From IMG/VR virus record IMGVR_UViG_3300047094_002472: a DNA stretch of 64,000 nt; one strand, 5' to 3'. Source of the stretch: a virus. The translations under genes were made by a program, and so were the position numbers. The notes below the pieces were generated by a model. It was not told the origin of the DNA. It did not search any database and saw nothing but the letters and a program-made list of their open reading frames with translations. Positions 1,090 to 40,082 of the stretch are shown here, in pieces (position 1 is the stretch's first letter; every line of letters begins with the position of its first letter).

Positions 1090-1142
1090 TATAATTTATA
1101 CTATTATCCTAACTCTTTTATTAGAAAATTTCAAAAGTCAAT

Positions 1143-1173
1143 AAAAAAAGCAGGCCGAAGCCTGCTAATTTTT
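1143..1173 (-). terminator. Rho-independent terminator (probably bidirectional) between converging genes
   Basis: On - strand AGCAGGC-TTCG-GCCTGCT followed by a T-run; T-run also on the + side. Confidence 0.85.
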
Positions 1174-1185
1174 GAACTTAACCGA

Positions 1186-1497
1186 TTAGTATTTATATGC
1201 CTGATAAGGCGCATAATAATATCTAGGTGGCCACATAAAACATCTATGCTTTTCCACCAAGCCCCACGACGGATTAACAACCACAGGATTGGTCCACACA
1301 TAAGTTGTATAATAAACAACTGGCTGACTAACAACTGTTGATATAGGAACCCACGTTGTTTGAACCTGTGGAACATTTACAACTACCGGAGATGCTGGAG
1401 CATAACCATAATTATAAAAGCTTACTTCATTAGCAAATCCCCTCTCACCAAAAACACACAACATCAAAACTAATCCTAAAATAATATTTTTCATCAT
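1186..1497 (-). CDS. Small secreted/membrane protein with N-terminal signal peptide, Tyr/Pro/Val-rich
   Basis: MMKNIILGLVLMLCVFGERGFA signal-like N-terminus; GGGAGAG RBS upstream; own terminator downstream. Confidence 0.7.
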   Translation of the reverse strand: MMKNIILGLVLMLCVFGERGFANEVSFYNYGYAPASPVVVNVPQVQTTWVPISTVVSQPVVYYTTYVWTNPVVVNPSWGLVEKHRCFMWPPRYYYAPYQAYKY

Positions 1498-1805: not shown

Positions 1806-1833
1806 TTGACAAAATTTGTGTATCAACTACTAT
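1806..1833 (+). promoter_or_regulatory. sigma70-like promoter driving the sigma-factor operon
   Basis: TTGACA (1806-1811), 16 nt, TACTAT (1828-1833). Confidence 0.65.
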
Positions 1834-1861
1834 ATAGTATAGCTTGACCATTTTTTCGCAA
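1834..1861 (-). promoter_or_regulatory. Divergent sigma70-like promoter for the HTH/AT-hook gene
   Basis: TTGCGA, 16 nt, TACTAT on - strand; the two -10 boxes form the palindrome TACTATATAGTA (1828-1839). Confidence 0.5.
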
Positions 1862-1870
1862 GAGGCCACC

Positions 1871-2068
1871 ATGGATAATTACCAATTTATTCCTTCCGTT
1901 CTAGACACCAAAGCTAGCGCCTCATTAGAAGCAGAAGTAGCTAAAGAGCTTAAAATTAAAGATCCAGAAAAGAGCATAGCACAATTACTACAAGAAAATA
2001 ATGAAGAAGAAACCCAACCAGACCAAAAAGAAAAAGACCAAAGCGCGCAAGAAGGTCAAAGTATCTGA
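1871..2068 (+). CDS. Small acidic hypothetical protein
   Basis: ATG at 1871 after AGAGG; overlaps start of next gene. Confidence 0.55.
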   Translation: MDNYQFIPSVLDTKASASLEAEVAKELKIKDPEKSIAQLLQENNEEETQPDQKEKDQSAQEGQSI

Positions 2069-9034: not shown

Positions 9035-10504
9035 ATGCAAATATTTAAACATGAAAAACTTGATGGAATAGACGAGCTAATCCAATCACAAGCCTCAATA
9101 ACCTACGCATCTCTTGCACAACCATCAGACCCTTCTCTTTCACAAAAAATGAAGGAAATGAAGTCCATTGCCTCATTAGAAGATAAAGACCTTTATTATG
9201 TTCAATCAATTTTAGTAACATCATCTTGGAACAAAAATGACGATATTTTTGATGCTCAAGAAATTTGGATCGCAAGAAACACACCATCCCACAAACCAAC
9301 AAACCTAGAACACGATGAGCATAGTATCATTGGACATATAACAGAAAACTGGCCAATGACCGATGATGGTATCCTAATTGATAATAACACACCAACAGAA
9401 AATTTACCACAAAAATACCATATTTTAACAGGCTCTGTGATCTATACCGGTTTTTCTGACCCTGCACTAAGAGACAGAGCATATAAGCTGATTTCTGAAA
9501 TAGAGTCTGGCGAGAAGTATGTTAGTATGGAATGTTATTTTAAGGGGTTTGATTATGGCTTACTAAACAAGACAAGCGGAGAATTTAGAGTATTATCAAG
9601 AGGAGAAGATACCTCCTATTTGACTAAATATCTTAGAGCATACGGTGGTGACGGCGAGCACGAAAATTATAAAATTGGTAGAGTTTTACGAGAAATAACA
9701 TTCTCTGGTAAAGGTTTTGTAAATAGACCAGCAAACCCAGAAAGTGTTATTTTTACGAAAGATAATATGAAAAATCTAGAGCCGTCCCAAAGTTCTGAAA
9801 TAATTAATTTAGAAAAAAAGACGATTTCCGAAACAATAGGTGTATTTTCTAATCAAGCTAATTTAAAGGAGACGAATATGAGTGAACAGACCGAAGTTAT
9901 CACAAACGAAGTTACCACAACTGAAACAGAGGTAGTAGCTATGAATGACTGCTCAGAAGCACAGGCTTCCGTTACAAGCCTACAAGAAAAAACAACAGAA
10001 CTCGAAACACAACTTGCTGAAGCCAGAGAGACCATTTCGGCTCTAGAAACAGCCCAAGCAGAAGTAGCCAATCTTAAGGCTGAACTAGAAGCAGCATCAG
10101 AAGTTATCGCTGCTTATAAGAAGAAGGACGAAGAGATGGTCAAGAAAGAAAAGAAGATGAAGAGAATGGCCGCTCTCGTAGATAATGGCATCGAGGCCGA
10201 AGTAGCCGAAGCCACAGTAGAAAAATTTGATTCTCTAGACGATGCCTCGTTCGAAGCTATGACAAGCCTCCTAGCTGCTAAAAAAGCAAAAGAGGAGAAG
10301 AAGCCTGTTGTAGAAGAGAAAGAGGAAGAAAAAGAAGAAGCTTCCCAGGAAGTAGATGCTTCTGTACTAGAGAACGTCGAAGTTGAGCAAGAAATCGATC
10401 TAAGTGTTGGTGGTAACGCCTCCACAGAAATCGAAAGCACAAGAGCAGCTTTAGTTGATTTTGTTTATAATAGACTAGGTAAAAAACTTAATAAGGGAGA
10501 GTGA
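9035..10504 (+). CDS. Prohead protease with C-terminal scaffold domain
   Basis: NKNDDIF, NLEHD, VSMEC (catalytic Ser), FSGKGFVNRPANP; acidic coiled-coil C-terminal half. Confidence 0.8.
   Translation: MQIFKHEKLDGIDELIQSQASITYASLAQPSDPSLSQKMKEMKSIASLEDKDLYYVQSILVTSSWNKNDDIFDAQEIWIARNTPSHKPTNLEHDEHSIIGHITENWPMTDDGILIDNNTPTENLPQKYHILTGSVIYTGFSDPALRDRAYKLISEIESGEKYVSMECYFKGFDYGLLNKTSGEFRVLSRGEDTSYLTKYLRAYGGDGEHENYKIGRVLREITFSGKGFVNRPANPESVIFTKDNMKNLEPSQSSEIINLEKKTISETIGVFSNQANLKETNMSEQTEVITNEVTTTETEVVAMNDCSEAQASVTSLQEKTTELETQLAEARETISALETAQAEVANLKAELEAASEVIAAYKKKDEEMVKKEKKMKRMAALVDNGIEAEVAEATVEKFDSLDDASFEAMTSLLAAKKAKEEKKPVVEEKEEEKEEASQEVDASVLENVEVEQEIDLSVGGNASTEIESTRAALVDFVYNRLGKKLNKGE
9839..9845 (+). 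promoter_or_regulatory. KGTGTAT putative late promoter (nested scaffold, decoration, capsid)
   Basis: GGTGTAT 32 nt upstream of internal ATG 9878. Confidence 0.5.
9878..10504 (+). CDS. Nested in-frame scaffolding protein (internal start)
   Basis: AAAGGAG RBS just before in-frame ATG 9878 (MSEQTEV...), preceded by GGTGTAT at 9839. Confidence 0.6.
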   Translation: MSEQTEVITNEVTTTETEVVAMNDCSEAQASVTSLQEKTTELETQLAEARETISALETAQAEVANLKAELEAASEVIAAYKKKDEEMVKKEKKMKRMAALVDNGIEAEVAEATVEKFDSLDDASFEAMTSLLAAKKAKEEKKPVVEEKEEEKEEASQEVDASVLENVEVEQEIDLSVGGNASTEIESTRAALVDFVYNRLGKKLNKGE

Positions 10505-10506
10505 AC

Positions 10507-10962
10507 ATGGCGTTAAAACCAGATCGTATCGAGTCATACACAGACATCTCCTTCTTCTGCAACACAGTTGCTGAAAGAGGCGGTATCGTTGTACACGTAA
10601 CAAGTGGCAATGGGGTCAGCATGGATGATGCTGGTGCTGTCGTTGCTTATCCAACTGCTAACACAGGCACTAAGCCAGCTGGTCTTTTACTAAATGATGT
10701 TGTTAATCTTGATCTTACAAGACAGCACATCAATTGGCACAAAGACGAAGTACAGCTAGGTAGCAAGGTAACACTTCTCCGTCAGGGACAGGTAACAACT
10801 AACATGGTTGCTACTGGCGTTACCCCAGCTGCTGGTGCTGATGCTTACTATGACAATGTTGGTAAGCTTACAACAGTTGCAACAAACAGCGTTAAGGTCG
10901 GTCGTTTTCTTAGCGGCAAAGATGCTGACGGTTACGTTAAAGTAGACATCAATATTACATGA
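10507..10962 (+). CDS. Capsid decoration/cement protein
   Basis: About 150-aa beta-rich Gly/Ala/Val protein between scaffold and MCP; AAGGGAG RBS. Confidence 0.7.
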   Translation: MALKPDRIESYTDISFFCNTVAERGGIVVHVTSGNGVSMDDAGAVVAYPTANTGTKPAGLLLNDVVNLDLTRQHINWHKDEVQLGSKVTLLRQGQVTTNMVATGVTPAAGADAYYDNVGKLTTVATNSVKVGRFLSGKDADGYVKVDINIT

Positions 10963-13161: not shown

Positions 13162-14595
13162 ATGAATATTACTAAAAAATTAACAATGTTAACATATAAT
13201 GGTTCTTCCCTAGTTCTAGCCACTAGCGATATTAAACCTAACTTTAACACTATTTTTAGTATTAATGAAAGTGGTACAGGATATGTCTCTTTCTCCTCCT
13301 CCAGCTTGTTCAATTCTCTACCTAGTCTTCTTGATGGCAATACATATCTTATTGATAGTAAGAGCGAAATGCTCCCGTGGGTTCTTACAGAGATAATTAT
13401 AGATAATGGCTCCGCTACAACACCAGCGCCAACCACAACAGCGCCAACCACAACAGCGCCAGCGCCAACCACAACAGCGCCAACCACAACAGCGCCAACC
13501 ACAACAGCGCCAGCGCCAACCACAACAGCGCCAACCACAACAGCGCCAACCACAACAGCGCCAGCGCCAACCACAACAGCGCCAACCACAACAGCGCCAA
13601 CCACAACAGCGCCTACCACCACGGGCGTTCCAACAACCAGCGGCCCAACCACCACGGGTGAGCCAACAACAAGCGGTCCAACCACAACCGGTGGTCCAAC
13701 AACCACGGGCGTTCCAACCACCACGGTAGCGCCAACCACAACTGTTCCTCCGTATGCAATGTATGCGACACGAAGCAACTCTGCTCCAACAAGGGTTTCC
13801 GCTAACGGCATAGGAAACGGCTCCGCTGGTAACACTGGTAATTTTGCTAATTATGGAAGTAATGCTACCTGGAATGGAGCTATTGGTAATATTACTAGTG
13901 TAGGAACAAATGGTTCCAGCAGCTATTTTGGAACCCAGGATCAATCAGGAAATACATGGGAATGGAATGATAGTATCATACAAAGTACAAACAGAGGCAT
14001 ACTAGGAGGTAGCTATAATACAAGCATAGCTTCTGATCTATCGTCTATATCAAGAAAGTTCGCAGCACCAAACAGCGGCGCTATAAACTACGGGTTTAGG
14101 GTTTGTTCCAAATATCCTATTCCAGAAGGAAATACTCTAATTGAATTTGTACCTGTGCTTGAACAAAACAATCCTGCTAATTCTACAGGGTATGGATCTG
14201 TTTCTTACAGTTATTGTATTTCTAGATATCCTATAACGAACAGTCAATATGCTCAATTCTTATTAAGCATAGAGGGTGCGGATAGCTATAGTGCTTATGT
14301 TTCTACTATGGCATCGAATATACGAGGAGGCATTAATTCCGACTATACAGTAAAAGCTAATATGGGTAACAAGCCAGTAAACTATATTACTTGGTTTAGA
14401 GCTGCTAGATTCGTAAACTGGCTACACAACGGCATGGTATCCGGACCACAAAGCAGTCTAACCACAGAAAGCGGAGTTTATACTTTAAACGGAGCCAACT
14501 CTGGTGTGTCTTTTGCTAAAAATCCAGACGCAAACTACTGGATTCCTTCCGAAGACGAATGGTATAAGGCGGCTTACTATTTACCGACAGTATAA
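13162..14595 (+). CDS. Virion-associated protein: N-terminal domain, Thr/Pro stalk and circularly permuted FGE-sulfatase (SUMF1/CLec-fold) domain
   Basis: GTQDQSGNTWEW and GFRV occur before YPITNSQYAQFL, KPVNYITWFRAARFVNWL and IPSEDEWYKAAYY. Confidence 0.8.
   Translation: MNITKKLTMLTYNGSSLVLATSDIKPNFNTIFSINESGTGYVSFSSSSLFNSLPSLLDGNTYLIDSKSEMLPWVLTEIIIDNGSATTPAPTTTAPTTTAPAPTTTAPTTTAPTTTAPAPTTTAPTTTAPTTTAPAPTTTAPTTTAPTTTAPTTTGVPTTSGPTTTGEPTTSGPTTTGGPTTTGVPTTTVAPTTTVPPYAMYATRSNSAPTRVSANGIGNGSAGNTGNFANYGSNATWNGAIGNITSVGTNGSSSYFGTQDQSGNTWEWNDSIIQSTNRGILGGSYNTSIASDLSSISRKFAAPNSGAINYGFRVCSKYPIPEGNTLIEFVPVLEQNNPANSTGYGSVSYSYCISRYPITNSQYAQFLLSIEGADSYSAYVSTMASNIRGGINSDYTVKANMGNKPVNYITWFRAARFVNWLHNGMVSGPQSSLTTESGVYTLNGANSGVSFAKNPDANYWIPSEDEWYKAAYYLPTV
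13421..13745 (+). repeat. Coding tandem repeats (APTTT/APAPTTT, then G[VEG]PTTT/SGPTTT)
   Basis: Near-perfect gcgccaaccacaaca 15-nt units with a 51-nt higher-order period. Confidence 0.9.
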
Positions 14596-19927: not shown

Positions 19928-22900
19928 ATGGCCCAAGCTTTTAATCTAACAGCACAGATCAATCTACAAGCACCAAGTAACCTAAAGACAGTAGTTGCCC
20001 AGATCCGTAGAGAATTTCAAACAGTTTCTGCGGACGTAAAAGTTAATGTTAGTCCCCAAGCAGCAAGATCTATTGATAATGTCACAAATAGACTAGATGC
20101 TATGAACGCATCATTAATTCAAGCAAGGAACAATACTACAGCTTTAGACTCGGCTCTTAGAAACCTATCGTCCTCCCTTTCTTCTGTACAATCTACTACT
20201 AGTAAAACAGATAATGCTTTTTCTAAAACCTCCACATCCGTTGGTCAAACAGCAAAAAATATCAAAGTTGCTACAACAGAGATGGAAGAGTTCGGAAAAC
20301 AATCAGCTCTTGCTATTCGAAGATTTGCCGCATTTAGCGTTGTTACTAGCGGTGTCTTTGCATTAATCAATGCTGTTAATAGTGGGTTTCAGGCTTTCGT
20401 AGAATTCGACAAAGAACTAGTGAAACTACAACAGGTAACAGGTAGGGGTGAAATTGGTCTTAAGAGTCTAGAAAAAGAAATATCCAACTTATCCACAACT
20501 CTTGGTGTTAGCAGTAAAAGCTTAATGTCCGTAGCTTCTACCTTAGCACAAGCTGGCTTGAGTGCTGACGAGACCAGAGTAGCACTAGCAGCCTTGGCAA
20601 AAACCGAACTAGCTCCATCTTTCGACAATCTTACAGATACAACAGAAGGTGCTATTGCCGCTATTCGCCAGTTCGGTCTCGAAGCCGGAGACCTAGAAAA
20701 AGCGCTAGGCTCGATCAATGCTGTGGCAGCAGCTTTCGCTGTTGAGTCTAAAGATATTATTGCTGCTATTCAGCGTACCGGTGGTGTGTTCGCCGCTTCT
20801 AGTAGAGGAGTTAGCGAAGGAACGGACGCTCTGAACGAGTTTATAGCAGTATTTACAAGTATTCGACAAACTACTCGTGAAAGCGCAGAAACCATTGCTA
20901 CTGGTTTGAGAACAATTTTTACACGTATTCAAAGAGCTAAAACTATTGATCAGCTTAAGGAATACGGGGTCGAGCTAACTGATCTAGAAGGTAAATTCGT
21001 CGGCCCGTATGAGGCAGTGAAAAGACTAAGCGCCGCATTAAGCCAATTGGATCCTAGAGACCTAAGATTCTCGTCCATAGTTGAAGAGCTTGGTGGATTC
21101 CGTCAGATCGGCAAGGTTATTCCACTTATTCAACAATTTAAAACAGCACAGGACGCATTGGCAGTAGCGCAAAAGGGACAGGGTAGCTTATACGACGCCC
21201 AGGTTACCGCACAAAAATCTTTAGCCAATCAATTAGCAAAGGTTAGAGAACAATTTTTAGCACTGATTAGAGATGTTGGTAAGAGTCAGTCATTCCAGGC
21301 TTTGTTCAAAATTGTAACCGGGCTTGCCAGTGGTTTAATTAGTTTAGCTAGTGCTTTCAAACCTATCCTACCCATACTTGCTATTATGGGTGCAGTAAAG
21401 GGCGTTTCCGCTATTAGACAGTTTGGTAGCGGCTTTATGGGCGGTATTTCTAAGGGTGGTGGTGCTCGTGGTGTTGGCAGCAATATTGGAGAAAGTCTTA
21501 GTGGAGCCAAAGATAAGGAGAGAGACGATACAACAGCTAGAGCTAGTGATGCTATAAGAGAAAATACATCAGCTTTAAAAATATTAACAGACTCAACCAA
21601 TAAATTAAATGCTTCTGTACTTAAACTTGATGATACTATTAAGTCGAGACCGTCTACTGGAACAGGACTAAATAGTGGAGGAATTGTTAGAAAATTTGCT
21701 AGGGGTGGACTGGTTCCTGGCTCTGGTAACGGAGATACTGTTCCGGCCATGTTGGAACCGGGTGAGTTCGTTATACGGAAGAAGGCGGTCGAAACGCTAG
21801 GGGCCAGCAGTCTTCACAAGATGAATAGGTATGCTAACGGTGGTGCTGTTAGCATACAGAACTTAAAGGGAACTGGCAAAAGGGGATATGGCAAAAAGAC
21901 TATTTCTGAATATCAAAACAAAAACGTAAACATAGAAGACGATGATTATATTAGCAGCCAAGGTTCCTCCATCGAGAGAGAAAAAATATCTAAATACTTG
22001 AGCGTTGCAGATTTTGCTAGCGGGATAAAGGAATTAGAGCCGCTATTAAATACAAAAGATACACTACTTCGTAAACAAAAAAGCTATGACGCACGAATAG
22101 GACCACTGGCAGAAGAACTACTTAAGAAAAAACTAGGAGCCTCCAAATATCTTGGATTAGGCACATCATCCTCCAATGAAAGTAATGCTCCTATTGATCT
22201 AATAGGTGATGATAATTTATATGAAGTTAAACTTAAAAATGAATCAACTTCCGACGCCGAGCTATATAGTAAGCTATTAAGATATAAACTTGAACAATCT
22301 CCAGAATCTGTTTTATCACAATTTAAAGAAGCTCAAAAAGAAAAGCAAGACTCTATATCATTAGGATCAATTAAGCTTCTAGAAGCTCAAGAGTTAAGAA
22401 AAGAACTAGATGCGACATATAGACCCAAAGCTGCTGGTGGTATAATTCAAAAACTCGCCAACGGCGGTTTCCCGCTAATAGACGATCTACCAAATGCTAA
22501 GGGCTCTATGCTCCCAAGACCGGGAATAAGCCCAGGATCACCACTAGACAAGATTATCAAAGAGGGTGGTGGTGCGGTTGATTTTGATAGAACTTTACAA
22601 AGAACAGTTGGAGATGCCGCATATGCTAGTGCCAAAACAGCATCCGCTAAAGATGAAGTTTTACAAAAATACTTTAGAGACCCAAAAGCTAGATTAAAAG
22701 ACGCCAAACAAGCACGACTAACACAGTTTGGTAAACAACTACAAGATCTTATCAAGCAGGGGGTAATCGAACCCAGTAATCTATCTATCATTTCTAAATC
22801 AAAAAGAGTAGAAGGACTAGCCGAACATATTCAAGAAATGTTTGGGATACCAGTACAAAACATGGTATTTACCTCTGGTGGTTCAAAAGAGCCAGCTCTT

Positions 22901-25900
22901 GAAGCTATGAGAACCAAAGGCCCAAGAGTAAATAGAGTAAGAAAAGCTCTAGGTGGTCTAGTACAGAGATTCGCAGTCGGTGGAGAAGCAGAAGCACTAG
23001 AACAATTAGGTAGGGCCAAGCTTATATCACTTGCACAAAAGGCTGGCATACCATACGACTACGAACTGCTGGGTAAAAAATCTCTTGAGCAATCAGACAG
23101 AGCTAAAAAAGATTCATTCTTACAGCAGCTAGTTGATGCTGGTATAATATCAAAAAATAAAGCCGCTAGAGATAGCACTGTTGCTGCTTCTAGATCATTA
23201 GCAGTAGTTGGTATTACTGGAGATAGATCAGAGCAAGAGATCAAAACCCCCGGAGCTTCTGATGACAAATCAGGTCTGTCTGTGAGAGGCGTTCCTGCTA
23301 CACTAGAAACCGGCGCATTACCACCTAATGTTGCTAAGAGAGTTCAAGCTAAAATTAGGGCAGGTATTGAAAAAATGGTCAGAGAAGTTGGGGAGCAAAT
23401 ATCTAAAGCTTCTGGCAGCATACCTAATTTGGATCGTAAGTTTGTAAGATCTGTTGCCTCAAAGGACATAGAAGATATTGCTGGTTCAATTTTCGAGAAA
23501 GCTCTTGGCGTTGCTGGTGGTGGTTATGACCCAATGGCTAAGGCTATAGACTTCCCCGGTGGACTAAATGAACAACTGGCTGGTTTACTAGGTGTTAGTT
23601 CTGGTGTTATGACAGATGTTACTAATAGAGCTTCAAAAGCAACAGCAAATCGTAAAGTAGCAGATGGTCAGTTTGATAGGGGTCGTTTAGAGGCTAGACA
23701 AAGATTTGGTCGCTCACAATTTGCTCTTGGTGGACAAGTATATGGTCTTCAAAAGGGTACAGGATTAAAAGATAGTGAGTTTGATGCCCTAGTTAAGTAT
23801 GCTAATACTAATGCTTTTACAGAACAAGAGTTTAAGGACTACCTAGCTCTAGAGCTTAAGAGAAAAGCATCTAAAAAAGATTTATTAATCAACAGCAATC
23901 AATTAAGACAGGTATTATTAAGCGGAACCACAACACCACAAGCAAGCTCCTCACAACTAGATCTTGCTAGACAATTAATGGGTGCTCCAGACGCTAAGTT
24001 TAATCCAAAATATGATAATGCTAGAAAGCCCTTTGCAACAGGTGGTTCTGTAGAAGATACTGTACCAGCACTATTAACTCCTGGTGAATTTGTTATCAAT
24101 AAAAAGGCCGCACAACAAATTGGTTATAGTAAATTAAATAGAATGAACAAGGCTGATAAGATTAAGGGATATAACAAGGGTGGTCCAGTAGGAGTCCAAA
24201 GATTTGAGGTTGGAGGAGAAGTAGCTGGAGTATCAGAAAAAATCTTAAAATCTATTCTTGTAGAAGTGAGTGCGAAAGAAAATAATAGTGGTGGAAAAGA
24301 ACTAATTAATACTATTAAAGACGCGATAGCCAATCAAGCTCTTGGAACAAAGAGTGCAAGTGAAGCTATTGTGGATGTGGCCGCAGGTATTAGAAAATTA
24401 TCCATAGAAAAGAGAGCATCTGGTAATGAAGACAGAGCACAAAGTCTTAAGAAAATTTTTGATCGTCTAGATGAACTTCAAAAGAGTCGGGGTGGATCAT
24501 CCTTGGTGGAGGCCACTAATACTAGAGTAGGAATAGATACAGCTAAGCCCACAGGTGAAACTGCACCTGCTTCCGAGACTCCAGCATCCGGTCCATCCCC
24601 ATCCGGCCCATCCCCGTCCAGTACAAGCACAGCGAAAGACGAGGTTAAAAAACGCAAAGAAGAACAAAAAGAATATTTTGCATATAGAGCTAAACAATCC
24701 GGACAAACAGCAGATGCTTTCCGCTCAACATTAGCAGCAAAGGTTGTGAGTCGGGAAAAAGACTTGGCTGAAAATCTTAAAAATCAACAAATTGGCTTTA
24801 GATACAGCGCACTCAGTCAAAGCAGTAGCCTCAAAGGATCAACAGATAAAGAGCAACTCGATGCGGCTAAAGAAGAATTTGCCGCAAAATTAAAAGAGAT
24901 GGATCCTTCAAGAAATGCTGAAGAGATAGATAAAGCAGCGGCCAGACTTGTGGGTTCTCTGAAAAAGGGTGCGGATTCTTTCGATACGATTGTAGAAAAA
25001 GATACCGTCCTGTCAGATATGCTCAACAAAACCAGAACCAGCGCAGAGAATGCTGCTATAGCTTTTGACGATATCGCCAAAGAGAATGGACTAACCTCAG
25101 ACGTTCTAAGGGAAGAGGTATCTAGTAAGAATAATAAACAATATCGTCAACAAAGATTTATGCAGAGCGAGTCTGGTCAAAAATTTGGAAAACTTGCTGA
25201 GATAGCCCCAGATGCTGTTTCTAGATTTGCTAGTTCCGGAATAGGAAAAGCCCTTAGTTCTGCATCTGATATAAATTCTAAATTATTTGGCAAAAGCTTA
25301 GGAATTTTTGGTAAAACTATGGGTAAAATTGGAGAGAGTCTTGATAAAAAATTCCAATCGGTTGGCGGTTCATTGGTGGCTTTTGGCGGAGGACTAGCCG
25401 TCGCTGGCGATCAATTACCAAAACTTATAGAGTCTTTTGGGATGAGAGACAGCGTGGCAGCTGCTGGTGTAGTAGGAGGAATACAGGGTGCTGGTCAGGG
25501 ATTGGCTAGCGGAGCTTTATTGGGCGGTCAAATAGCCGGGCCAGTAGGAGCTCTAATAGGAGGAGTTACCGTAGCTATTGTAAAAGGAATAGAAGGAGCT
25601 TTTAATGCTATAAATAATAAAAAACTAGAGAATACACTGAAGGCTTTAGACAAAACCTCTTCCGACCTCAGTGTAGCATTTAAAAAATTAGATGCGGCAG
25701 CCACCGATGTAAACTTCTCTAATGCTCAGTCTAGTTTTCAAAAAGAAGTATCTGTTGCTAATTCTTTGAGAGCACAGGCTAATTTTACTGGAGGGTCCGA
25801 GCTGGTGCGTATGTCTAGGGCTTTTGATTTTACTGGTGTGACAGGAGCTTTGACTGGCCAAAGCGTAGAAGGAGAAGCTGGTAGGTCTCTGGTTACACAG

Positions 25901-28900
25901 ATAGGGAATCAGCTTCAGGCAGCCGAAAAACTAGGAGATGTTGCATTATCCCAAACAAGTACAGAAAGCATAAATAGCTTTTTAGACTCATTAGTCAAAT
26001 TACCAGAAAAAAGAAAAGATCAGACGCAAGAGCAATACAACGAAGAAAATAAAGACTCTATAGATCAAAGAAATACTCAACTTGCTAGAGCCAGCCAAAC
26101 ATATCAGCAACTTGCCGAGTCTGGATTAAGCGAAGAAGATATCTTTATGGATAAGTACATAGACTACGCAGCCAAACAAGGTAAAACACCAGAGGATATC
26201 AGAAAACAGCTCAGCACAGAAGAAGGTAAAAAGGAAGCGCTGAATATAGGCAAGGAACAACTAGCAGTTGATAGCGAACTAGCATTAAAACAACAAGTAT
26301 TAGCTAGAGCATCTAGAGAACTAGCAACAGCGACAGACAATCTTATAGACATATATAAAAGAGCCCAAGGAGGCCTGCTCAGATATAGTCAAGAATTAGA
26401 AAAATTTGAAGCAGATGCTGTTATGAGAGCCAATAGTCTTACGGGCGATGCTAAGATTAGAAGCGTGGATAGATCCAATGAAAATGCCTTAGGAAATATT
26501 AGCGCATACTCAATGGCTGAAGTTGAACAAATCGCTAATCAAACAGCTTCTATTGCAGGCGGAGGCGATGCAGGAGATACGCTAAAAAATAATATTATAA
26601 CTGCTAAAATTTTACAAGACGAATTACCAAAAGCTCTCAAGGGTGCAAAGGATGGTGATGTTGATTCTATTATGGAAAAACTAGAAAAGTCTTTTGATGC
26701 TGCTGGAATTGAGATGAGCGAACAAGTGAAGACCCAGCTGAGAGAAAAGCTACAGGAAAAAATCCAGAATAGACAAGGTAACGTTGGCTTAGCCGATCTT
26801 GCAGAAGATATGTCGTTTGTACAGGACGCAACAAAACTTACAGAAGAGGCACTAAAGACCGGGCAGGCGATTCAAAAGGCTTATAATGACACTCTTCAGG
26901 CATCTATTAATTTATTAGATCAATATAATTCTAATCTAGATAAAAGCGATGAGTGGAATAGAAAGGTAGCAGATATTAGAATTAATGCGGAGCTTGATTT
27001 AGCAAGAGCTTTGGGTCAGTCCCCAACACTAGAGCAGCTAAATGATCCCTTCAATACTAGGGTTAAAAGCTTAACTTCTGGTTTAATTCCGGGTGGATCC
27101 ACAGATCCAAATGCTATTAATAATTCTATGAAAAATAGTATTGAACAGAAAAATATAATACAAGCCCGTATAGATGAAAATAAAAAGAAAATTGGTATGC
27201 CCGGTGAAAACAGAGAGGCTATTAATAGTCAAATTAAAAAAGATCAAGAAGCATTAGCCAAACATACGAGAGCTATCAATAATGGCAATAAAGCCCTAGA
27301 AGAACTAGCAAATAATAGCGAGGCAGCAAGTAATGCCTTAAATGCTATACAGGATAGACAACAACTAGGGGACAATGCTAGGGGCTTGGCTCGCAGACTA
27401 TTAACATCAGACTCTGGAGAGCTTGCCGATTTTACTCGCCAAATGGGTGCTTACACAAAGACCATAAGCGGAAAAGCGTCAGGACGGGAACTAGGAAGTC
27501 TGCAATTCAGACAAGACGCTTTTGCTGGACTAGACAATATTAAGTCTGTGATACCGGAAAATATTGCCAAACAAATGGAAGCGAAACTAGCACGTTCTAT
27601 GATAGAGGCCAATCCACAAGGACAACAAATACTTCAGTCCGTGATAGGCGTTGATGCTAAAGGCAATCCAATGACCGTTGATCAGAGTTTAAAGATGGCC
27701 GAAGAAGGCAAGGATCCAGTACAAGAACAATATATAGAAGCATATAGACAGGCCACAGAAGTTCAAGCACAAGCAGCACAAGCACTAGCAGATAATGCTC
27801 TTTTAGCCGCTGAAGAATTAAGAATGGATATCGAATCATTATTTGCTGGCCTAGAGACAAAGTTAGCGAAAATACTAGAAACAGCAAAGACTGACTCTGA
27901 AGTACCAAGACCACCCGTAGAAGCACAACCAGCACCACAAAAACCCTTGTCAACAGGTAGATCAAAAGGAAAATCTCAACCTCCAGATGAATCGAATAAA
28001 GATGCTGGAGCTGTAGTTGGTAGTATATTTAATGCCTTGGTAGTAGCACTAGGCGCTGGGGTTGGTGGACTATTTGCGGTAAATGAAGTAAATCGGTTTA
28101 GAGATAGAAGAGAGGACAGAAGAAACAAAAATAAAGAGAAGACACCAGCAGAAGCAGATAAAAGCAAGGATACGCCTGATTCTGACACAGACAGCAAAAC
28201 AAAAACTCCAGATGCTGATACCGATAGTGGTAGAAGTTCAAGGTCTCCTCGTGGCGGCGGAAGAGGCTTTAGTAGAAAAGCTGCTAAGGCGATTCCCGGA
28301 CTGGGATTAATATTTACTCTTATGGGTGCGTTTTCGGCTCTTGGTGCTGGGTATAGCTCAGAGAGCGGCGAGTCTGCTGATGATTATGGCATGTCCGGAG
28401 ATAGCGCATTAGACGTATTGATGGATATAAGAGCAATACTAGACGAAAGGCTGTGCTGCTGTTGTAAAGAAATGTCTGATGCTTTAAAAAAGGAACCACA
28501 AAAACAGCCTTCAGAAATGAAGATATCTCCAGTTCCCCCAAAGCCAGATCAAATAAAGCCGCTCGAAAACAATAATATCAGAGTAGAAGAAAACAAACCA
28601 AAAGAAGCACTCTCAGAAGCAAAAGACCAAAAAACAGAAGTAGAAACAAGAAGCTTGGGTTTAGATGTGCTACAGGGCGCATTGGAGCTAGGCGGCTTTA
28701 TACCAGGAATAGGAGAATTTGCGGATCTTGCAAATGCAGCCATATCATCAGGAAGAGCTGCTATGTCTAAAGATCCTAAAAATCGCATGGACTTTGGTAT
28801 CGACGCGGGTTTAAATGCAGCCGCTGCTATTCCTTTCGTTGGATATGCAGCAAATGCTACTAAGATTACCAAAAGAGCAATTCAAAATCCATTAGTCGAG

Positions 28901-30832
28901 GCTGGTGCTAATATGGCTGTGGATACCGCGGCTGAAATAGCACTATCTCCTCTTCAGCAAGATCCTGTGAATGTTCCCAAGACAATGACTGGTAAAGATG
29001 TATCAACTAAAGAAGCCGAGCGCATAATTGATAAACAGCGCGCCGATGCCGGAGAAGCCCCACTGTATAAGGGTGTAAAACAGCCGTCTACAGACTACGA
29101 AAAAGAATATGAAAAGTGGAAAGAAGCGCAGAACGACTCCGCTATGATTGATCTTACAAATCCATCAACATCATCATCTCCGGAAATCAATACTATTGCT
29201 GATATGGCTAAACAAGCTATGACGCCGGGCAGCATATACACTCACGATACACACGCTGAAGAGATTTTAAATAAAATTCTTGTTGCTCTTAACGAAATAA
29301 AACAAGTTATAGAAAGTAAGACATCTTCTGTTGGGACTACAGAAAGAAAAGAACTAACCTCTGACTCTTCGGCTAGTTCCGCATCCTCTCTACTTCAAAC
29401 TCCTACCCAGACAGAAACCCCACAGCAATCTACACAAACCCAAGTTTCTACAACCAGTGCCTCGAAACCACAAGTATATAGTTCAACAACTCCTAAAAGT
29501 GATACAAAGCAACCGGTTGCAACAAATAACAGAACAGCAGAACAAGAAAAAGCTATTAAAGATAAAGAGAAAGCAGATAAAGAATTTGCTGAAAAATATA
29601 GAAAAGAAAAGCCAGAATACGGAACAACTGCCGATCAAATTGCTGGAGGAAAATCTTCATTAGAAGCTAAGTCTGCTAGGGGTGAAAAACTATCTGAACG
29701 CGAAGAGTTCGAACTAGAGCAAGGTAGAACAGACGAATATTTCCGTAGGCGCAATAATGGAGAGAGAGATTTAGACTATGATCAAATGGTATATGCTAGA
29801 CAACAAAGGGCAGTAGCATATGAAAACAAAGATAGTTCACTTCGAGCCCAAACCTCTCCTATCAATGCAACCGAAGCTAACGTAGCAGCAAATGGTGGAT
29901 CACCAGGACCACAAAATGGATTAACCGCCCCTCAATCTGCTGCAACCGAGGCTTCTGTTGCTAGTGCAACATCTCCGCAGGTCTATGGATCGCCTACCGC
30001 TCAACTATATGCTAATAAAATAGATAAAACTAAAAAGTGGAGAACACTAGAAAAAGCTCACGGAAATGTAGAATCCCTAGAAAGAGCACAAGCGGAAAAA
30101 CTAGGAATGAGTTATGGTGATTTCCTAGCAGATAAAGATAAAATTGGAGCATTTAGACAAACAAAGGAATATAAGTCTGCTAAAGACAAAGTGTCTTCCG
30201 CTAGAACAGATTACTTGGCCGTTAAGGATGCTCCTACTGTTGGCGATGATTTTGATAAGTCAGGACACAGAAAAAACGTCGGATATGAACAAATGATGGC
30301 TAGCAGAAGAGACTCATATTTATCAAGATTCCGACCAGAAGTTAGAGAAAAGATGATGACGGATAAAGATAGAGAGAGATATATGTCCGCAGCATCTGGT
30401 CCTATTCCGACCGCCGTACCGACCCAACAAATGTCTCAGCAAACTGGCACGGGTCCGCAGACCCAACAACAGAATAGCGGTGCAACAGCAACGATGATCA
30501 CTTTAGATCCAAAAGCACTAGAAGCCATGACGTCGTTCAATAATAGTTTTGGAAAATATGTTGCAGACCTTGGGAACATAACAATCCCCAATGAAGTAAA
30601 GATTAGCGGCAACTATACTGTGGATCTTAAGATCAGTGGTGCTGCTGCTATTGAAGCTCTAGATAAGAAGATAAAAGAAATTGCTAACACATTAGTTAGT
30701 GGTACAGATTTTACATCTGCTCTTAACCAGCTCAGAGATGAAACATCTTTGGCAACAAAGAATGCAGTCAAATCGTCTAGTTCTCGTGGAACAACAAGTT
30801 CTGGAGGAAGTCAACAAGGACAAATAGCATGA
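19928..30832 (+). CDS. Tape measure protein (TP901-type core) with internal cargo domains, 3634 aa
   Basis: TP901-like core (FDKELVKLQQVTG..LAQAGL..ESAETIATGLRTIFTRI); two DTVPA(M/L)L.PGEFV motifs; Gly/Ala hydrophobic segments; position after chaperones. Confidence 0.9.
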   Translation: MAQAFNLTAQINLQAPSNLKTVVAQIRREFQTVSADVKVNVSPQAARSIDNVTNRLDAMNASLIQARNNTTALDSALRNLSSSLSSVQSTTSKTDNAFSKTSTSVGQTAKNIKVATTEMEEFGKQSALAIRRFAAFSVVTSGVFALINAVNSGFQAFVEFDKELVKLQQVTGRGEIGLKSLEKEISNLSTTLGVSSKSLMSVASTLAQAGLSADETRVALAALAKTELAPSFDNLTDTTEGAIAAIRQFGLEAGDLEKALGSINAVAAAFAVESKDIIAAIQRTGGVFAASSRGVSEGTDALNEFIAVFTSIRQTTRESAETIATGLRTIFTRIQRAKTIDQLKEYGVELTDLEGKFVGPYEAVKRLSAALSQLDPRDLRFSSIVEELGGFRQIGKVIPLIQQFKTAQDALAVAQKGQGSLYDAQVTAQKSLANQLAKVREQFLALIRDVGKSQSFQALFKIVTGLASGLISLASAFKPILPILAIMGAVKGVSAIRQFGSGFMGGISKGGGARGVGSNIGESLSGAKDKERDDTTARASDAIRENTSALKILTDSTNKLNASVLKLDDTIKSRPSTGTGLNSGGIVRKFARGGLVPGSGNGDTVPAMLEPGEFVIRKKAVETLGASSLHKMNRYANGGAVSIQNLKGTGKRGYGKKTISEYQNKNVNIEDDDYISSQGSSIEREKISKYLSVADFASGIKELEPLLNTKDTLLRKQKSYDARIGPLAEELLKKKLGASKYLGLGTSSSNESNAPIDLIGDDNLYEVKLKNESTSDAELYSKLLRYKLEQSPESVLSQFKEAQKEKQDSISLGSIKLLEAQELRKELDATYRPKAAGGIIQKLANGGFPLIDDLPNAKGSMLPRPGISPGSPLDKIIKEGGGAVDFDRTLQRTVGDAAYASAKTASAKDEVLQKYFRDPKARLKDAKQARLTQFGKQLQDLIKQGVIEPSNLSIISKSKRVEGLAEHIQEMFGIPVQNMVFTSGGSKEPALEAMRTKGPRVNRVRKALGGLVQRFAVGGEAEALEQLGRAKLISLAQKAGIPYDYELLGKKSLEQSDRAKKDSFLQQLVDAGIISKNKAARDSTVAASRSLAVVGITGDRSEQEIKTPGASDDKSGLSVRGVPATLETGALPPNVAKRVQAKIRAGIEKMVREVGEQISKASGSIPNLDRKFVRSVASKDIEDIAGSIFEKALGVAGGGYDPMAKAIDFPGGLNEQLAGLLGVSSGVMTDVTNRASKATANRKVADGQFDRGRLEARQRFGRSQFALGGQVYGLQKGTGLKDSEFDALVKYANTNAFTEQEFKDYLALELKRKASKKDLLINSNQLRQVLLSGTTTPQASSSQLDLARQLMGAPDAKFNPKYDNARKPFATGGSVEDTVPALLTPGEFVINKKAAQQIGYSKLNRMNKADKIKGYNKGGPVGVQRFEVGGEVAGVSEKILKSILVEVSAKENNSGGKELINTIKDAIANQALGTKSASEAIVDVAAGIRKLSIEKRASGNEDRAQSLKKIFDRLDELQKSRGGSSLVEATNTRVGIDTAKPTGETAPASETPASGPSPSGPSPSSTSTAKDEVKKRKEEQKEYFAYRAKQSGQTADAFRSTLAAKVVSREKDLAENLKNQQIGFRYSALSQSSSLKGSTDKEQLDAAKEEFAAKLKEMDPSRNAEEIDKAAARLVGSLKKGADSFDTIVEKDTVLSDMLNKTRTSAENAAIAFDDIAKENGLTSDVLREEVSSKNNKQYRQQRFMQSESGQKFGKLAEIAPDAVSRFASSGIGKALSSASDINSKLFGKSLGIFGKTMGKIGESLDKKFQSVGGSLVAFGGGLAVAGDQLPKLIESFGMRDSVAAAGVVGGIQGAGQGLASGALLGGQIAGPVGALIGGVTVAIVKGIEGAFNAINNKKLENTLKALDKTSSDLSVAFKKLDAAATDVNFSNAQSSFQKEVSVANSLRAQANFTGGSELVRMSRAFDFTGVTGALTGQSVEGEAGRSLVTQIGNQLQAAEKLGDVALSQTSTESINSFLDSLVKLPEKRKDQTQEQYNEENKDSIDQRNTQLARASQTYQQLAESGLSEEDIFMDKYIDYAAKQGKTPEDIRKQLSTEEGKKEALNIGKEQLAVDSELALKQQVLARASRELATATDNLIDIYKRAQGGLLRYSQELEKFEADAVMRANSLTGDAKIRSVDRSNENALGNISAYSMAEVEQIANQTASIAGGGDAGDTLKNNIITAKILQDELPKALKGAKDGDVDSIMEKLEKSFDAAGIEMSEQVKTQLREKLQEKIQNRQGNVGLADLAEDMSFVQDATKLTEEALKTGQAIQKAYNDTLQASINLLDQYNSNLDKSDEWNRKVADIRINAELDLARALGQSPTLEQLNDPFNTRVKSLTSGLIPGGSTDPNAINNSMKNSIEQKNIIQARIDENKKKIGMPGENREAINSQIKKDQEALAKHTRAINNGNKALEELANNSEAASNALNAIQDRQQLGDNARGLARRLLTSDSGELADFTRQMGAYTKTISGKASGRELGSLQFRQDAFAGLDNIKSVIPENIAKQMEAKLARSMIEANPQGQQILQSVIGVDAKGNPMTVDQSLKMAEEGKDPVQEQYIEAYRQATEVQAQAAQALADNALLAAEELRMDIESLFAGLETKLAKILETAKTDSEVPRPPVEAQPAPQKPLSTGRSKGKSQPPDESNKDAGAVVGSIFNALVVALGAGVGGLFAVNEVNRFRDRREDRRNKNKEKTPAEADKSKDTPDSDTDSKTKTPDADTDSGRSSRSPRGGGRGFSRKAAKAIPGLGLIFTLMGAFSALGAGYSSESGESADDYGMSGDSALDVLMDIRAILDERLCCCCKEMSDALKKEPQKQPSEMKISPVPPKPDQIKPLENNNIRVEENKPKEALSEAKDQKTEVETRSLGLDVLQGALELGGFIPGIGEFADLANAAISSGRAAMSKDPKNRMDFGIDAGLNAAAAIPFVGYAANATKITKRAIQNPLVEAGANMAVDTAAEIALSPLQQDPVNVPKTMTGKDVSTKEAERIIDKQRADAGEAPLYKGVKQPSTDYEKEYEKWKEAQNDSAMIDLTNPSTSSSPEINTIADMAKQAMTPGSIYTHDTHAEEILNKILVALNEIKQVIESKTSSVGTTERKELTSDSSASSASSLLQTPTQTETPQQSTQTQVSTTSASKPQVYSSTTPKSDTKQPVATNNRTAEQEKAIKDKEKADKEFAEKYRKEKPEYGTTADQIAGGKSSLEAKSARGEKLSEREEFELEQGRTDEYFRRRNNGERDLDYDQMVYARQQRAVAYENKDSSLRAQTSPINATEANVAANGGSPGPQNGLTAPQSAATEASVASATSPQVYGSPTAQLYANKIDKTKKWRTLEKAHGNVESLERAQAEKLGMSYGDFLADKDKIGAFRQTKEYKSAKDKVSSARTDYLAVKDAPTVGDDFDKSGHRKNVGYEQMMASRRDSYLSRFRPEVREKMMTDKDRERYMSAASGPIPTAVPTQQMSQQTGTGPQTQQQNSGATATMITLDPKALEAMTSFNNSFGKYVADLGNITIPNEVKISGNYTVDLKISGAAAIEALDKKIKEIANTLVSGTDFTSALNQLRDETSLATKNAVKSSSSRGTTSSGGSQQGQIA

Positions 30833-34241: not shown

Positions 34242-37200
34242 ATGACAACAGAATATCAGAATATAGGATTAACTAACCCAATCACATTTTTAGATGCTAC
34301 AGTAGTATCATTTAATGGTAATCTTGGCGTTGGAAGCCAAGAAAGTTCATTAACTGTAGAACTTGTTGAGGATTGTGATTCTGGTCAGACGTTTGCCGGA
34401 GGTTTTCCTGATAGTCTCATAGGATCACCAGTATGTTTTCCAGAAAATCCTGGAGGAATGAACTTTTCTTTTTGTGGAATCATAACAAACTGGACCAGAA
34501 ATATCGGCACGTCAGGAAATACTTATAGCGTAACATTAACAGACCCAAGAAGAATACTTGAGAACTGCACACTAATCATAGACACATATGCTGGTACAGC
34601 ACTTAATAACATACCCAATGTATTTAATGTTTATAATTTCTATGAATCCGAATCGGCTATTACTAGCGGACAATGTTCAACCTTCGGAACATCTGGGATA
34701 TCCGGAGATCGAGGCATATCATATCAGGCTATTATCAATGCTCTTCAACAATCTAATTTGACTATACGAACTCCAACGGGATCTCCTTTGAGTATAGACC
34801 TTAGCGATCTCCCGTCTGGCTTTCCTCCTTCCTATAGGGCCAATGGTCCGTCGATGACTCTTCTTCAATTGATTACCGATGTTTGTGACGCTACTGGCTA
34901 TGATTTTTATGTCTACTTAAACTCTAACAGCGTTATAAAAATTGGACTAGTAGATCTTAGACAAAACCCATCATCTTTCTCTTATATACAAGGTATATCT
35001 GGCTATATTACCGATAGGTCTTTTGGTCGAGAATTAAGAATTGAAAAACAAAATTCTATTATTTTTGGTGAAAAAAGACACTATATGGCCACAGCATCTA
35101 ATTTTCTTCCTTATTTTGGAGAAAATACTAGATGTGAGCCAGTAACAGCGGTCCCCGGAGGCGGATCATGTGGCTTTAATGTCTTGGTATATACAAAACC
35201 TCTCGCCGCATCCCTTAGAAACCCAGGAGTTTTTGCTGGCGGAGAAGATCTCTATATCAATGAGTTCGACTTGAGAGCAAACTATGAATTATGGGTAGAC
35301 GCTGTACTAGCGGGCAATGCTGATTTAAGTTCATATGCTTTGACAGCTAAAGCTTGGTTTGAAGATAACGGTATGACTGGTAATTTTGCAAATGCTTTTT
35401 TTGCAGCTGGAAATGGAATAAAAGCGAGTGCCAAAATAAGTTCTGTACAAGACGTAACAGCAGGAAACCCTTCGCAAAATACATCCAGAAAGACACAAGA
35501 ATATATTAATGAAGATGCTAAAAAAATACATGGTTATATAGAGTCTCTTAGGCAAACATATTACGGTAAGCAGTTTCTGTGTACATTAAGTGAAAATATT
35601 TGTGTTGGTAATACACAAGACATAATGACCTCCGGAAATTCTGCCTCATCAGTAACTTGTTTAAGCACAGAGAAATTTTACAGTGCGGAACCAACAAATG
35701 ATGGTGGTTGGGTGGAAACTGGTGGAACTGTTATGGGCGTATCCGATCCCTACCTCGGTTTTTTTAGACAAGATGACGGTCGAGTAGGAGCGTTTGCTAA
35801 ATTTACTACCGGTAATGTTGGCTCTGGCCGTAAATTAAATCTAGATAATATTTCTGCTGATGAGGTATTAGTAAATGATAATGGGTCAGAGGCATACGTT
35901 AAGGCAGAGGTTGGAGAAAAAATCTATAAGATTAATAATCAAACATACGTATTAATAAAGTTTAGTGACGCCTGTTTAACGACCCTTAATTCTCAAGAAG
36001 CACAGTTTCCAGCAGCATTTCTTGCCGCGGCATCCGCAATAGCAAAAAGCTCTGGTTTAACCAGTGGTGGCTCGGGAGTTACAAATCAGGCTATGTATAT
36101 ATGTGATAGCTTGAATATGTCTAGTATGAATGAGGCTGTATCTGGGTTAGATGTTTCTTCTACTAATAAATACCAGCTAACACCCGGAGCTGTTACGCCA
36201 ATCATTGCCGCAATTCCGATGAGAAGCAATATTAGCACATATGGTCCATACTCTAATCCGAATATTGGTCAAAACGCCGGCGGTTGTAGTGCGGAACAAA
36301 ATACAGACCTTGCCCCATGGGTTTTTGGTGGCTCTAATGCTATGAATACTGCTGGAAATTTATTAGCACGACTATCCCAGATGGGATTAAATCAGGCAGA
36401 GAGTGGCTCTGTCACCCTCGTTGGTTTGCCAGACCTACCATTTCTAGGGAATGATTATAATAGCAATCCTAATCTTAGTGGTATTAATGTTAATTTTGGA
36501 TCTTCTGGTATTACAACAACCTATACCTTTCAAACATTTACTCCAAAGTTTGGTGACTTAGCAAAATCTGCTGTGGAGCAAATGAAGAATGCCGCTAAAA
36601 ACAGACAAAAGCAGCTCCAGTTTTTAAGAAACCAAGCTATAATGTCTCATAACATTAATAGAAAACTAAAAACCGTGGGTGGAGGAACAAGGAAACCGGC
36701 AGATAAAAATGTGGCAGACGGACAAACCCTTCATAGATGCATGATTGCTGATATGAAGGATTGGTACGAACAGCCGTCGGGAGATAGTCAAAGAACTGTT
36801 GTAGGTATAGATACTCTGCCAAAATCAGTACTAGAATTAAGATTTAACTACGCCAAAAAAGCATTTATGAGTTTGGATGGTTTATTTGGACCAGTATGTA
36901 AAGCTGGGGATAATGGTTGTGGCCTACCTAGATATGCTAATTATCAAAATAATAATTTTGTACAAATTAATAAAACTAATAGTTCTCCATTATCACCACA
37001 ACCGCCTTTTGATAAAGAGGGAAATTGTAACGATCCAATAACTATGGATCAATATAATCTACGAATTAATCAAAAATATTTAGATCCTCTTACTAATAAG
37101 GTTTCAGGAAGTAATCATCATCACGATGGAGATGGCGCCGGTCACGCCATAGACCTTTTAGGTAGGGGTGATACTCCGCCGGATGAGACGATGTTAATGA

Positions 37201-39326: not shown

Positions 39327-39377
39327 TGGTAGCTAATAAATAATATATAAGTGAGCTTTTACTCTTACTTATTATTC

Positions 39378-40082
39378 TTAACCGGGGTGAGGTGTTGTTG
39401 TAGTCGTCGGGGTGGATTCGCAAATGGCGTTGTAATAAGAGTCTCGGAGGCTCCCGTAATAGGGTGAGGAGGAGTATTCAGCTTGAAGATCCTCTAAGGC
39501 AGCACAATCCCCGGGCAAACTGGTATCTGTGCGGTTTGGATCGCAACAAGTCGCCCAGTCCCCAGTTTTTTTGCCTTGAATATCAATCCATTTTAGCTGA
39601 TATGGAAGTTCGAATACTGGCAGATCCCCAATGGGACCAATAGGGAAGAACGCCTCGGTAACAGCCACAAATTCCCCCGTTTTTTCCCACCCAGATGGAA
39701 TCACACTTTCGCATGGAAGATCACCTGGAACATTGTACATCATCCAGGTATCGACTGTAACCCCACTCGAACCAAGATCTTTATAACTTTGAGGTATGTC
39801 TGACAAATATTTTATACAATCTCTGTATTGTCCACCCCCAATTGCCACGCACTGTGAACCGGGAGGGCATCCTGGCGCGAACCAGTTGGCCGCGATGCCG
39901 GCCCAGAGAAACCCGAGCATCGCCTCGGCCGAGTAGCGGCTTCACCACGCTCGCCCCCTGCACTTCGTGATCGTATTCGATGAAGCCAACCGAGCTGCCG
40001 AAGGTCTGGCGGGCGGGCCGCCACTGAAAGCCCGCGAAATCTCATTAAGGAGAGACTCAGGAAAAAAAAGTTTGCTACTCAT
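39378..40082 (-). pseudogene. Cys-containing accessory protein gene apparently disrupted in its 5' part; intact ORF 39378..39920
   Basis: ATG 40082 (MSSKLFF) is in frame with 39378..39920 but meets TGA at 39944-39942; GC3 pattern suggests compensating -1/+1 frameshifts near 40040 and 39938. Confidence 0.45.

Follow-up and report, generated by a model that had tools for sequence, protein, structure and literature searches.

A giant phage tape measure protein with a shuffled internal domain cassette, bracketed by lambda gpH-like modules and jointed by a standard di-glycine linker

We analyzed a stretch of 64,000 nucleotides (hereafter the window) from the IMG/VR virus record IMGVR_UViG_3300047094_002472, in which a single open reading frame (ORF) at 19928-30832 on the plus strand encodes a protein of 3634 amino acids (aa), P0001. 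This ORF is the tape measure protein (TMP) gene of a large uncultivated tailed phage with a genome of about 153 kb. The explanation that we favor, and consider probable, is that this TMP carries a hypervariable cassette (aa 640-1366) between two copies of a conserved module, M1 and M2, and that this cassette brings helper or anti-host domains to the host early in infection. The cassette is built of independently folding domains, and each joint between them is a short linker of the form (K/R)(F/Y)AxGGxV, which is predicted to be disordered and is often doubled. Comparison with related TMPs strongly supports the reading of this region as a swappable domain cassette.

The IMG/VR record that holds the window is 152,676 bp long and is rated complete by CheckV. 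We identified P0001 as a TMP because it matches PF10145 at aa 183-377 (E 8e-22, 78.5 bits against a cut-off of 33.2), TIGR01760 (E 2e-23, 82.8 bits against a cut-off of 28.8) and the tape-measure families of PHROG, and because its gene lies downstream of head genes: terminase and portal genes (PHROGs) and a cement protein gene (Pfam) are found upstream on the same strand. Searches of the genes neighbouring the TMP gene against PHROGs mostly gave no match. The first 640 aa look like an ordinary TMP of the TP901/lambda type, with an N-terminal domain and a hydrophobic Gly-rich stretch followed by M1, and the single open frame encloses the whole region in which the di-glycine motifs recur.

All eleven xxxGG motifs listed in the original prediction were recovered where it had placed them, and all are in the frame of the TMP gene. 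Between aa 576 and 1435 we counted 17 GG dipeptides compared with 9.6 in shuffled sequences (P 0.0065). The more specific forms [FYLK]AxGG and [FY][AEN]xGG occur 8 and 7 times (0.22 and 0.10 expected), and close pairs of the type GG-x(3-7)-[FYL]xxGG occur 4 times (0.08 expected). None of these three forms has a copy elsewhere in the 3634 aa. The motif region is somewhat richer in glycine than the protein as a whole (10.6% against 8.1%), as would be expected if the motifs were a chance or compositional artefact of a Gly-rich stretch that merely contains GG dipeptides. This reading is already refuted by the observation that the counts of the specific motifs were equalled in 0 of 2000 shuffles and that the motifs are kept at domain borders in more than 100 relatives, and we give it practically no credence. 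Six further GG dipeptides that had not been listed before (two each in EGGG 880 and AGGG 1197, one each in TSGG 984 and FPGG 1211) sit at conserved positions inside domains B and C and are not linkers.

Pooling of 2552 instances of the motif from 174 related proteins gave the consensus (K/R)-(F/Y/L)-A-x-G-G-x-V. We modelled aa 576-1440 with AlphaFold2 using 87 aligned fragments, and all linkers had a predicted local distance difference test score (pLDDT) below 50, that is, they are predicted to be disordered. The paired linkers match weakly the last 20 positions of the hidden Markov model (HMM) of the bracketing module and are thus mini-copies of the tail of this module. At the DNA level, similarity from linker to linker within the gene covers just 14-25 nucleotides at 68-94% identity, and because these repeats are short and imperfect the conservation of the linkers lies at the protein level.

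We next turned to related TMPs, using a family search restricted to aa 560-1460 of P0001. This search led to the identification of 1095 related proteins of 2000-6360 aa in the protein collection, nearly all with PF10145. In IMG/VR, 439 relatives are present. When the parts of P0001 were compared by BLAST with 120 relatives, the N-terminus was found in 119 and the modules in all 120, whereas domain A was found in 2, B in 97, C in 19 and D in 30. Iterative searches of 193 TMPs detected A in 19, B in 105, CC (the C-terminal part of domain C) in 118 and D in 43. The cassette domains always come after the first module and occur in different orders (C-B-D, B-C, B-D and D..B among the 120 relatives). 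Whatever its neighbour, B has ...(K/R)FAxGG-x-PLVDD on its N-terminal side and R-x-x-R-V-x-(K/R)-FAxGG on its C-terminal side, and the same holds for C and D. A motif lies no more than 30 aa upstream in 102 of the 104 B domains, and no more than 30 aa downstream in 94. Cutting 173 proteins at their motifs produced 378 pieces that fall into 102 clusters, 66 of them singletons, and that are combined in 93 distinct architectures. The alignment of related TMPs, which had been suggested as a check, was thus strongly positive, the GG linkers and their flanks being kept while the domains between them vary and shuffle. Precomputed Pfam hits in four relatives (P0021, P0109, P0094 and P0117) are to EF-hand (PF13499, PF13202), Gly-zipper_YMGG (PF13441) or DUF1269 (PF06897).

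The same picture emerges from DNA comparisons. The closest relative, L003 (identical to P0016; IMGVR_UViG_3300037189_022334), is 91% identical in DNA over nucleotides 1-1900 of the gene, has no detectable DNA similarity over aa 640-1263 and is again 86% identical from aa 1264 on. Both edges of the exchanged block lie one codon ahead of a motif, YANGG on the left and FALGG on the right. We then defined breakpoints as the internal ends of DNA matches of at least 80% identity among 63 non-redundant genes. Out of 127 such ends, 43% lie within 5 aa of a phi-xxGG motif (phi, hydrophobic residue) compared with 4.8% of random positions, with a median distance to the motif of 12 aa against 104, although this ratio is indicative only because related sequences share breakpoints and the 127 ends are not independent events. 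Together with the shuffled domains of the relatives, these breakpoints at linkers support the proposal that the motifs are recombination joints of a swappable payload cassette. In L003, A-B-C is replaced by a block (L003:10302-12170) of 620 aa, compared with 624 in P0001. This block contains a stretch with FDFDETL, ILTAR and IDDN that looks HAD-like by eye, and a CC-type domain with an intact D...EVK. A ruler constraint suggested by the near-equal length of the two blocks was dropped, as the full-length proteins are 370 aa apart in size and lengths in the family span 2000-6300 aa.

The two bracketing modules (aa 590-639 and 1369-1419) proved to be real copies of one motif, as had been proposed, scoring 71 and 114 bits with the family HMM. 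Sequence comparison further indicates that they are homologous to a conserved C-proximal TMP motif at about residues 719-786 of lambda gpH. In a phmmer search against 177,635 PDB sequences, M1 aligned with gpH 719-785 (8iyk_H, a solved tail-tip entry) over 67 residues with an E-value of 0.007, and the alignment spans the leading FAxGG, the GEFV core and the trailing YAxGG; M1 also aligned with the TMP of JBD30 (8rk3_A). An HMM built from 494 family modules matched gpH 751-786 with an independent E-value of 3e-9. In lambda the motif runs from FHFATGG (733-737) to YATGG (778-782). Matches of the cassette region to isolated phages are confined to the approximately 60 aa of the module and are found in TMPs of Clavibacter, Gordonia, Achromobacter and Nitrincola phages. 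Across the family the number of modules per protein varies from 1 to 8, and in half of the complete relatives one copy lies 100-133 aa from the C-terminus, as in lambda. P0001 differs from these relatives in having no lambda-like module near its C-terminus, its last module being 2202 aa from the end.

Between the motifs the original prediction had placed four unrelated, globular-looking segments, here called domains A to D (Table 1). The segments are indeed mutually unrelated and AlphaFold2 predicts compact folds for B, C and D. Domain A in contrast is poorly predicted, with pLDDT mostly below 50, because few homologues are available. Searches of each inter-motif segment against Pfam with E-values up to 10 returned only noise, profiles of A, B and CC found nothing meaningful among all PDB sequences, A also had no Pfam hit, and a Foldseek search of the cassette model against the BFVD viral models gave only long and poor alignments.

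Table 1 Positions in the window of the tape measure gene, its cassette domains, modules and linkers.
Feature	Position	Amino acids	Strand	Basis
Giant TMP gene	19928..30832	3634 aa	+	single open frame; PF10145, TIGR01760, PHROGs; downstream of terminase/portal
Conserved N-terminal TMP domain (PhageMin_Tail)	20474..21058		+	within aa 1-575, 45-97% identical in 119 of 120 relatives
Linker pair 1, LNSGG ... FARGG (FARGG also opens M1)	21668..21709		+	weak match to module HMM tail; pLDDT <50
Module M1, FAxGG-x-DTVPAxLxPGEFVI-x-A-x-LG-x-L-x-MN-x-YAxGG	21695..21844		+	homologous to lambda gpH 719-785
Domain A, PD-(D/E)xK-like motif E...PID...EVK	21845..22426	640-833	+	motif kept in homologues; low-confidence model
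Linker pair 2, KAAGG ... LANGG	22427..22468		+	motif position; pLDDT <50
Domain B, alpha/beta, HAD-like, invariant DxDRT after strand 1	22478..22942	851-1005	+	pLDDT 83-94; Foldseek, VIA
Linker pair 3, KALGG ... FAVGG	22943..22984		+	motif position; weak match to module HMM tail
Domain C, helical N-part (aa 1020-1080), disordered loop, C-part CC (aa 1118-1262, nt 23279-23713)	22985..23713	1020-1262	+	AlphaFold2
Single linker FALGG	23720..23734		+	right-hand breakpoint of exchanged block; 86% DNA identity resumes one codon earlier
Domain D, small helical	23735..24025	1270-1366	+	pLDDT about 75
Module M2 (FATGG ... YNKGG) and linker pair 4 (YNKGG ... FEVGG)	24032..24217		+	HMM 114 bits
Gly-zipper-like hydrophobic stretch, TMP body downstream of cassette	25364..25597	1813-1890	+	read from translation

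For domain A, alignment of 6 homologues showed that E90, P116 and D118 are invariant and that the final element is EVK, EAK or DAK in five of the six and ETR in the sixth. Its named neighbours in the ESM Atlas all belong to the PD-(D/E)xK clan, with weak scores of 0.81-0.83. Domain A thus carries an intact PD-(D/E)xK motif and may be considered a nuclease candidate, an assignment that is weakly supported. Domain B was matched by Foldseek to HAD phosphatases exclusively among its best hits (AphA, phosphoserine phosphatase and Lem4, E 0.15-1), with AphA first (E 0.15, probability 0.84). VIA, an aligner independent of Foldseek, retrieved class C acid phosphatases with Z-scores of 5.6, 5.4 and 5.3 over 126-129 aa, at a root mean square deviation of 4-4.5 A. 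As for sequence motifs, the residues of HAD motif I (D35, D37, R38 and T39) are invariant in 25 sequences and directly follow a modelled strand (aa 882-885), and the second strand carries LSIISKS. In the ESM Atlas, B has only unnamed viral clusters as neighbours (0.81). On its model B is weakly supported as HAD-like, and it may not be a classical phosphatase.

The two halves of domain C were modelled with pLDDT of 75-90 (N-part) and 78-96 (C-part). Modelled alone, CC reached a pLDDT of 85.8 and was mostly helical, with only a two-residue bridge. A by-eye reading of CC as a PD-(D/E)xK nuclease was not borne out by this confident model; structural searches gave nothing above a Z-score of 5.9, and no nuclease was among the VIA matches. 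An enzyme domain is also found in the relatives: the Pfam family ADPrib_exo_Tox (ADP-ribosyltransferase, ART) occupies the same slot at varying positions in 21 of 120 relatives, where it is flanked by FASGG and LAIGG. HIGH_NTase1_ass is matched in two of 53 relatives' cassettes.

We propose the following scheme. The cassette would reach the host envelope or cytoplasm at the start of infection, since the TMP would leave the tail ahead of the DNA, and would act there as a variable set of early helper or anti-host domains. Candidate activities would be ADP-ribosyltransferase in the relatives, and those of the HAD-like and PD-(D/E)xK-like domains in P0001. The standard linker could serve both as a flexible joint, with which globular beads would fit into a narrow tube and travel along it, and as a site where in-frame splicing is tolerated when domains are exchanged. 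TMPs that exit the tail first and can carry enzymatic parts have a precedent in T5 pb2 (10.1101/2022.09.20.507954). Injected effectors are plausible. The earlier claim that enzymes are delivered at injection is likewise plausible and partly borne out: it is favored by the ART domains in the slot of the relatives, by the PD-(D/E)xK motif of A and by the weak HAD-likeness of B, whereas CC, the best-predicted domain, has no recognizable enzyme fold.

Several observations weigh against a cargo of delivered effectors or against its exchange at the linkers, and the non-independence of the breakpoints mentioned above belongs with them. Domain B lacks the acidic motif IV of HAD enzymes (DD or GDxxxD), the corresponding stretch being MVFT-x-GG-x-K with no conserved Asp, and its structural matches are weak (E 0.15, Z below 6). 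On its model CC is a confidently folded domain without a recognizable enzyme fold, and where the consensus of its family reads E..L..LGA...IDFP...TDxKRT the copy in the window has TDVTN, with Thr replacing Lys. Among 1.84 billion proteins CC was found in 397 cluster representatives, nearly all of them giant; the rare short proteins that carry it resemble chimeras or pieces of contigs. Searches for free-standing homologues found none for A (86-340 aa) and none for B (78-277 aa). B and CC, which occur most often in the cassettes, are well conserved, with 50-80% identity. The restriction to TMPs, the conservation and the incomplete catalytic signatures of B and CC fit a structural role as well as an effector role. 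Among 50,697 phage records none matches beyond the module, so that the family has no cultured member. Finally, breakpoints may coincide with linkers because in-frame chimeras survive, no less than because the linkers are recombination hot spots.

In a structural reading, the modules and linkers would dock or oligomerise at the lumen of the tail tube, at the tail assembly chaperone or at the hub of the tail tip. The domains would be parts of a plug or of a trans-envelope conduit rather than effectors, and their shuffling would be an adaptation to different host envelopes. In agreement with such a structural function, the module is conserved from lambda to actinophages and always in TMPs. The copy found near the C-terminus in half of the complete relatives corresponds to the part of lambda gpH that stays with the hub protein gpI (PMC12617516). 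The well conserved and TMP-restricted domains B and CC, and the lack of an enzyme-like fold in CC, also fit. The ART domains of the relatives and the nuclease-type motif of A, in contrast, have no obvious structural role, the linkers are predicted to be disordered, and a diversity as extreme as 66 singleton clusters is typical of conflict-related payloads and not of structural parts. We regard a purely structural cassette as unlikely.

Another possibility, compatible with the cassette reading, is that the phiAxGG motifs are processing sites and that the TMP is a polyprotein, cut at tail assembly or after ejection so that its domains are freed. The linkers are predicted to be disordered and exposed, and the pattern around the GG, with K/R at -1 followed by F/Y, Ala, x, GG, x and Val, is more specific than mere flexibility would require. 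Adenain and PLpro cleave at (M/L/I)xGG or LxGG. The TMP motif, with a hydrophobic residue at P5 and Ala at P4, follows neither pattern. No C39 (PF03412), C48 (PF02902), S78 or M23 peptidase was found in the 153-kb genome; a search for C5 (PF00770) also gave no match, but its control was equally silent and this result is uninformative. The sole protease-like gene that we found is ClpP-like (PF00574, E 2.5e-15; G000:C1:12909-13385, locus L123), and it lies outside the window, about 60 kb from the tail and other structural genes. Peptidase domains were likewise absent from Pfam searches of P0001 (E up to 0.1), of its segments (E up to 10) and of the cassettes of 53 relatives.

Known TMPs provide arguments in both directions. 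T5 pb2 is also cut between its body and its enzymatic C-terminal part (10.1101/2022.09.20.507954). Lambda gpH is trimmed to gpH* by the loss of about 14 kDa of its C-terminus "from the glycine-rich region", at a site and by an agent that the cryo-EM study leaves undefined; residues 690-817 or so were not resolved there (PMC12617516). A fragment of 14 kDa would, by our estimate, place the cut around residues 706-722, which lie 15-25 aa before FHFATGG. The lambda motif starts 15-25 aa past the Gly-rich stretch, and a cut there would yield approximately the reported fragment; taken at face value, however, the 14 kDa estimate points upstream of the motif rather than at it. Overall we consider cleavage at the linkers possible and rather doubtful. 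A bolder version, in which the lambda-type module and its phiAxGG mini-copies form a self-contained processing signal and these TMPs are polyproteins whose linkers are all cleaved, either as the tail matures or following ejection, to release injected effectors (ART, nuclease and phosphatase-like), seems quite improbable to us. If it were true, the same motif would be the long-sought determinant of the gpH to gpH* cleavage.

Other features of the window are described here for completeness. A Pfam Gly-zipper_YMGG domain occurs in one relative at a place similar to that of the hydrophobic stretch downstream of the cassette. The C-terminal third of the TMP (window 27990-28470, plus strand, aa about 2700-2845) contains two hydrophobic Gly/Ala-rich helices, a highly charged low-complexity stretch and a CCCC run. 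The ORF matching the phage cement protein family (PF22758, E 1.6e-9) lies at 10501-10962 on the plus strand and helps to locate the head module. At 13162-14595, also on the plus strand, an ORF of 477 aa in the head/neck module carries an FGE-sulfatase (SUMF1-like) domain at aa 349-471 (Pfam E 2.6e-11). Downstream of the TMP gene, an ORF of 1694 aa (34242-39326, plus strand) extends into a patch of raised G+C content, 0.49 at 38001-40000 compared with about 0.38 across the rest of the window.

The usual view of a TMP is that of a ruler and channel-former to which, at most, a single muralytic part has been added. The present family, which is large and known from metagenomes only, with at least 1095 proteins, 439 IMG/VR contigs and, for CC alone, 397 clusters at 50% identity, uses the TMP as the carrier of a cassette that comprises several domains, evolves fast and follows a fixed linker grammar. 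Should its domains be delivered, the cassette would constitute a second route, beside head-packaged polyvalent proteins, for pre-loading an infection with enzymes, and a rich source of new anti-host or anti-defence activities. The family also offers a testable handle on the old question of the role of the conserved gpH motif and of the site and mode of gpH cleavage, and the standard linker would be a natural splice point for engineering cargo into phage tails.

Our literature search found no description of a multi-domain TMP cassette with a fixed linker grammar, and four known systems come closest. Lambda gpH is, like the TMPs described here, a protein of the type that leaves the tail before the DNA, and its module likewise follows a hydrophobic Gly-rich stretch. 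It has, however, one copy of the motif, near the C-terminus and without inserted domains, whereas P0001 has two copies about 780 aa apart and about 2200 aa from the C-terminus, which bracket the cassette, in addition to four mini-copies used as linkers. T5 pb2 with its C-terminal peptidase, TMPs with peptidoglycan hydrolase motifs and the TMP-like injection-system effector Sle1, whose functional domain is exchangeable (PMC13277306), share with P0001 a TMP scaffold joined to a functional domain, which in the TMPs acts after ejection. They carry one domain, usually C-terminal and muralytic or membrane-active, instead of several internal domains in series, drawn from many families and equipped with a dedicated bracketing module and linker grammar.

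The cassette could also be viewed as a TMP-borne counterpart of the head-packaged polyvalent proteins. These are likewise very large and consist of disparate, shuffled domains, with ADP-ribosyltransferases and nucleases among them, and their entry into the host together with the DNA has been predicted; they are packaged in the head or transferred by conjugation, lack a standard linker and as a rule are built around a zincin-like metallopeptidase as hub (PMC5512222). The carrier in our case is a TMP, no peptidase domain was found and the joints are all of one conserved motif. The paper describing polyvalent proteins makes no mention of tape measure proteins (PMC5512222). As to the presence of several unrelated catalytic domains, a trait of that class, Pfam certifies an ART domain in the relatives only, and P0001 has the weak HAD-like fold and the PD-(D/E)xK motif. 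Lastly, polymorphic toxins (Rhs, LXG and CDI) also combine a conserved delivery part with hypervariable domains swapped at junction motifs. They vary at a single C-terminal tip that is paired with a cognate immunity gene, whereas the variable part of P0001 is internal and multi-domain, and its target would be the phage's own host.

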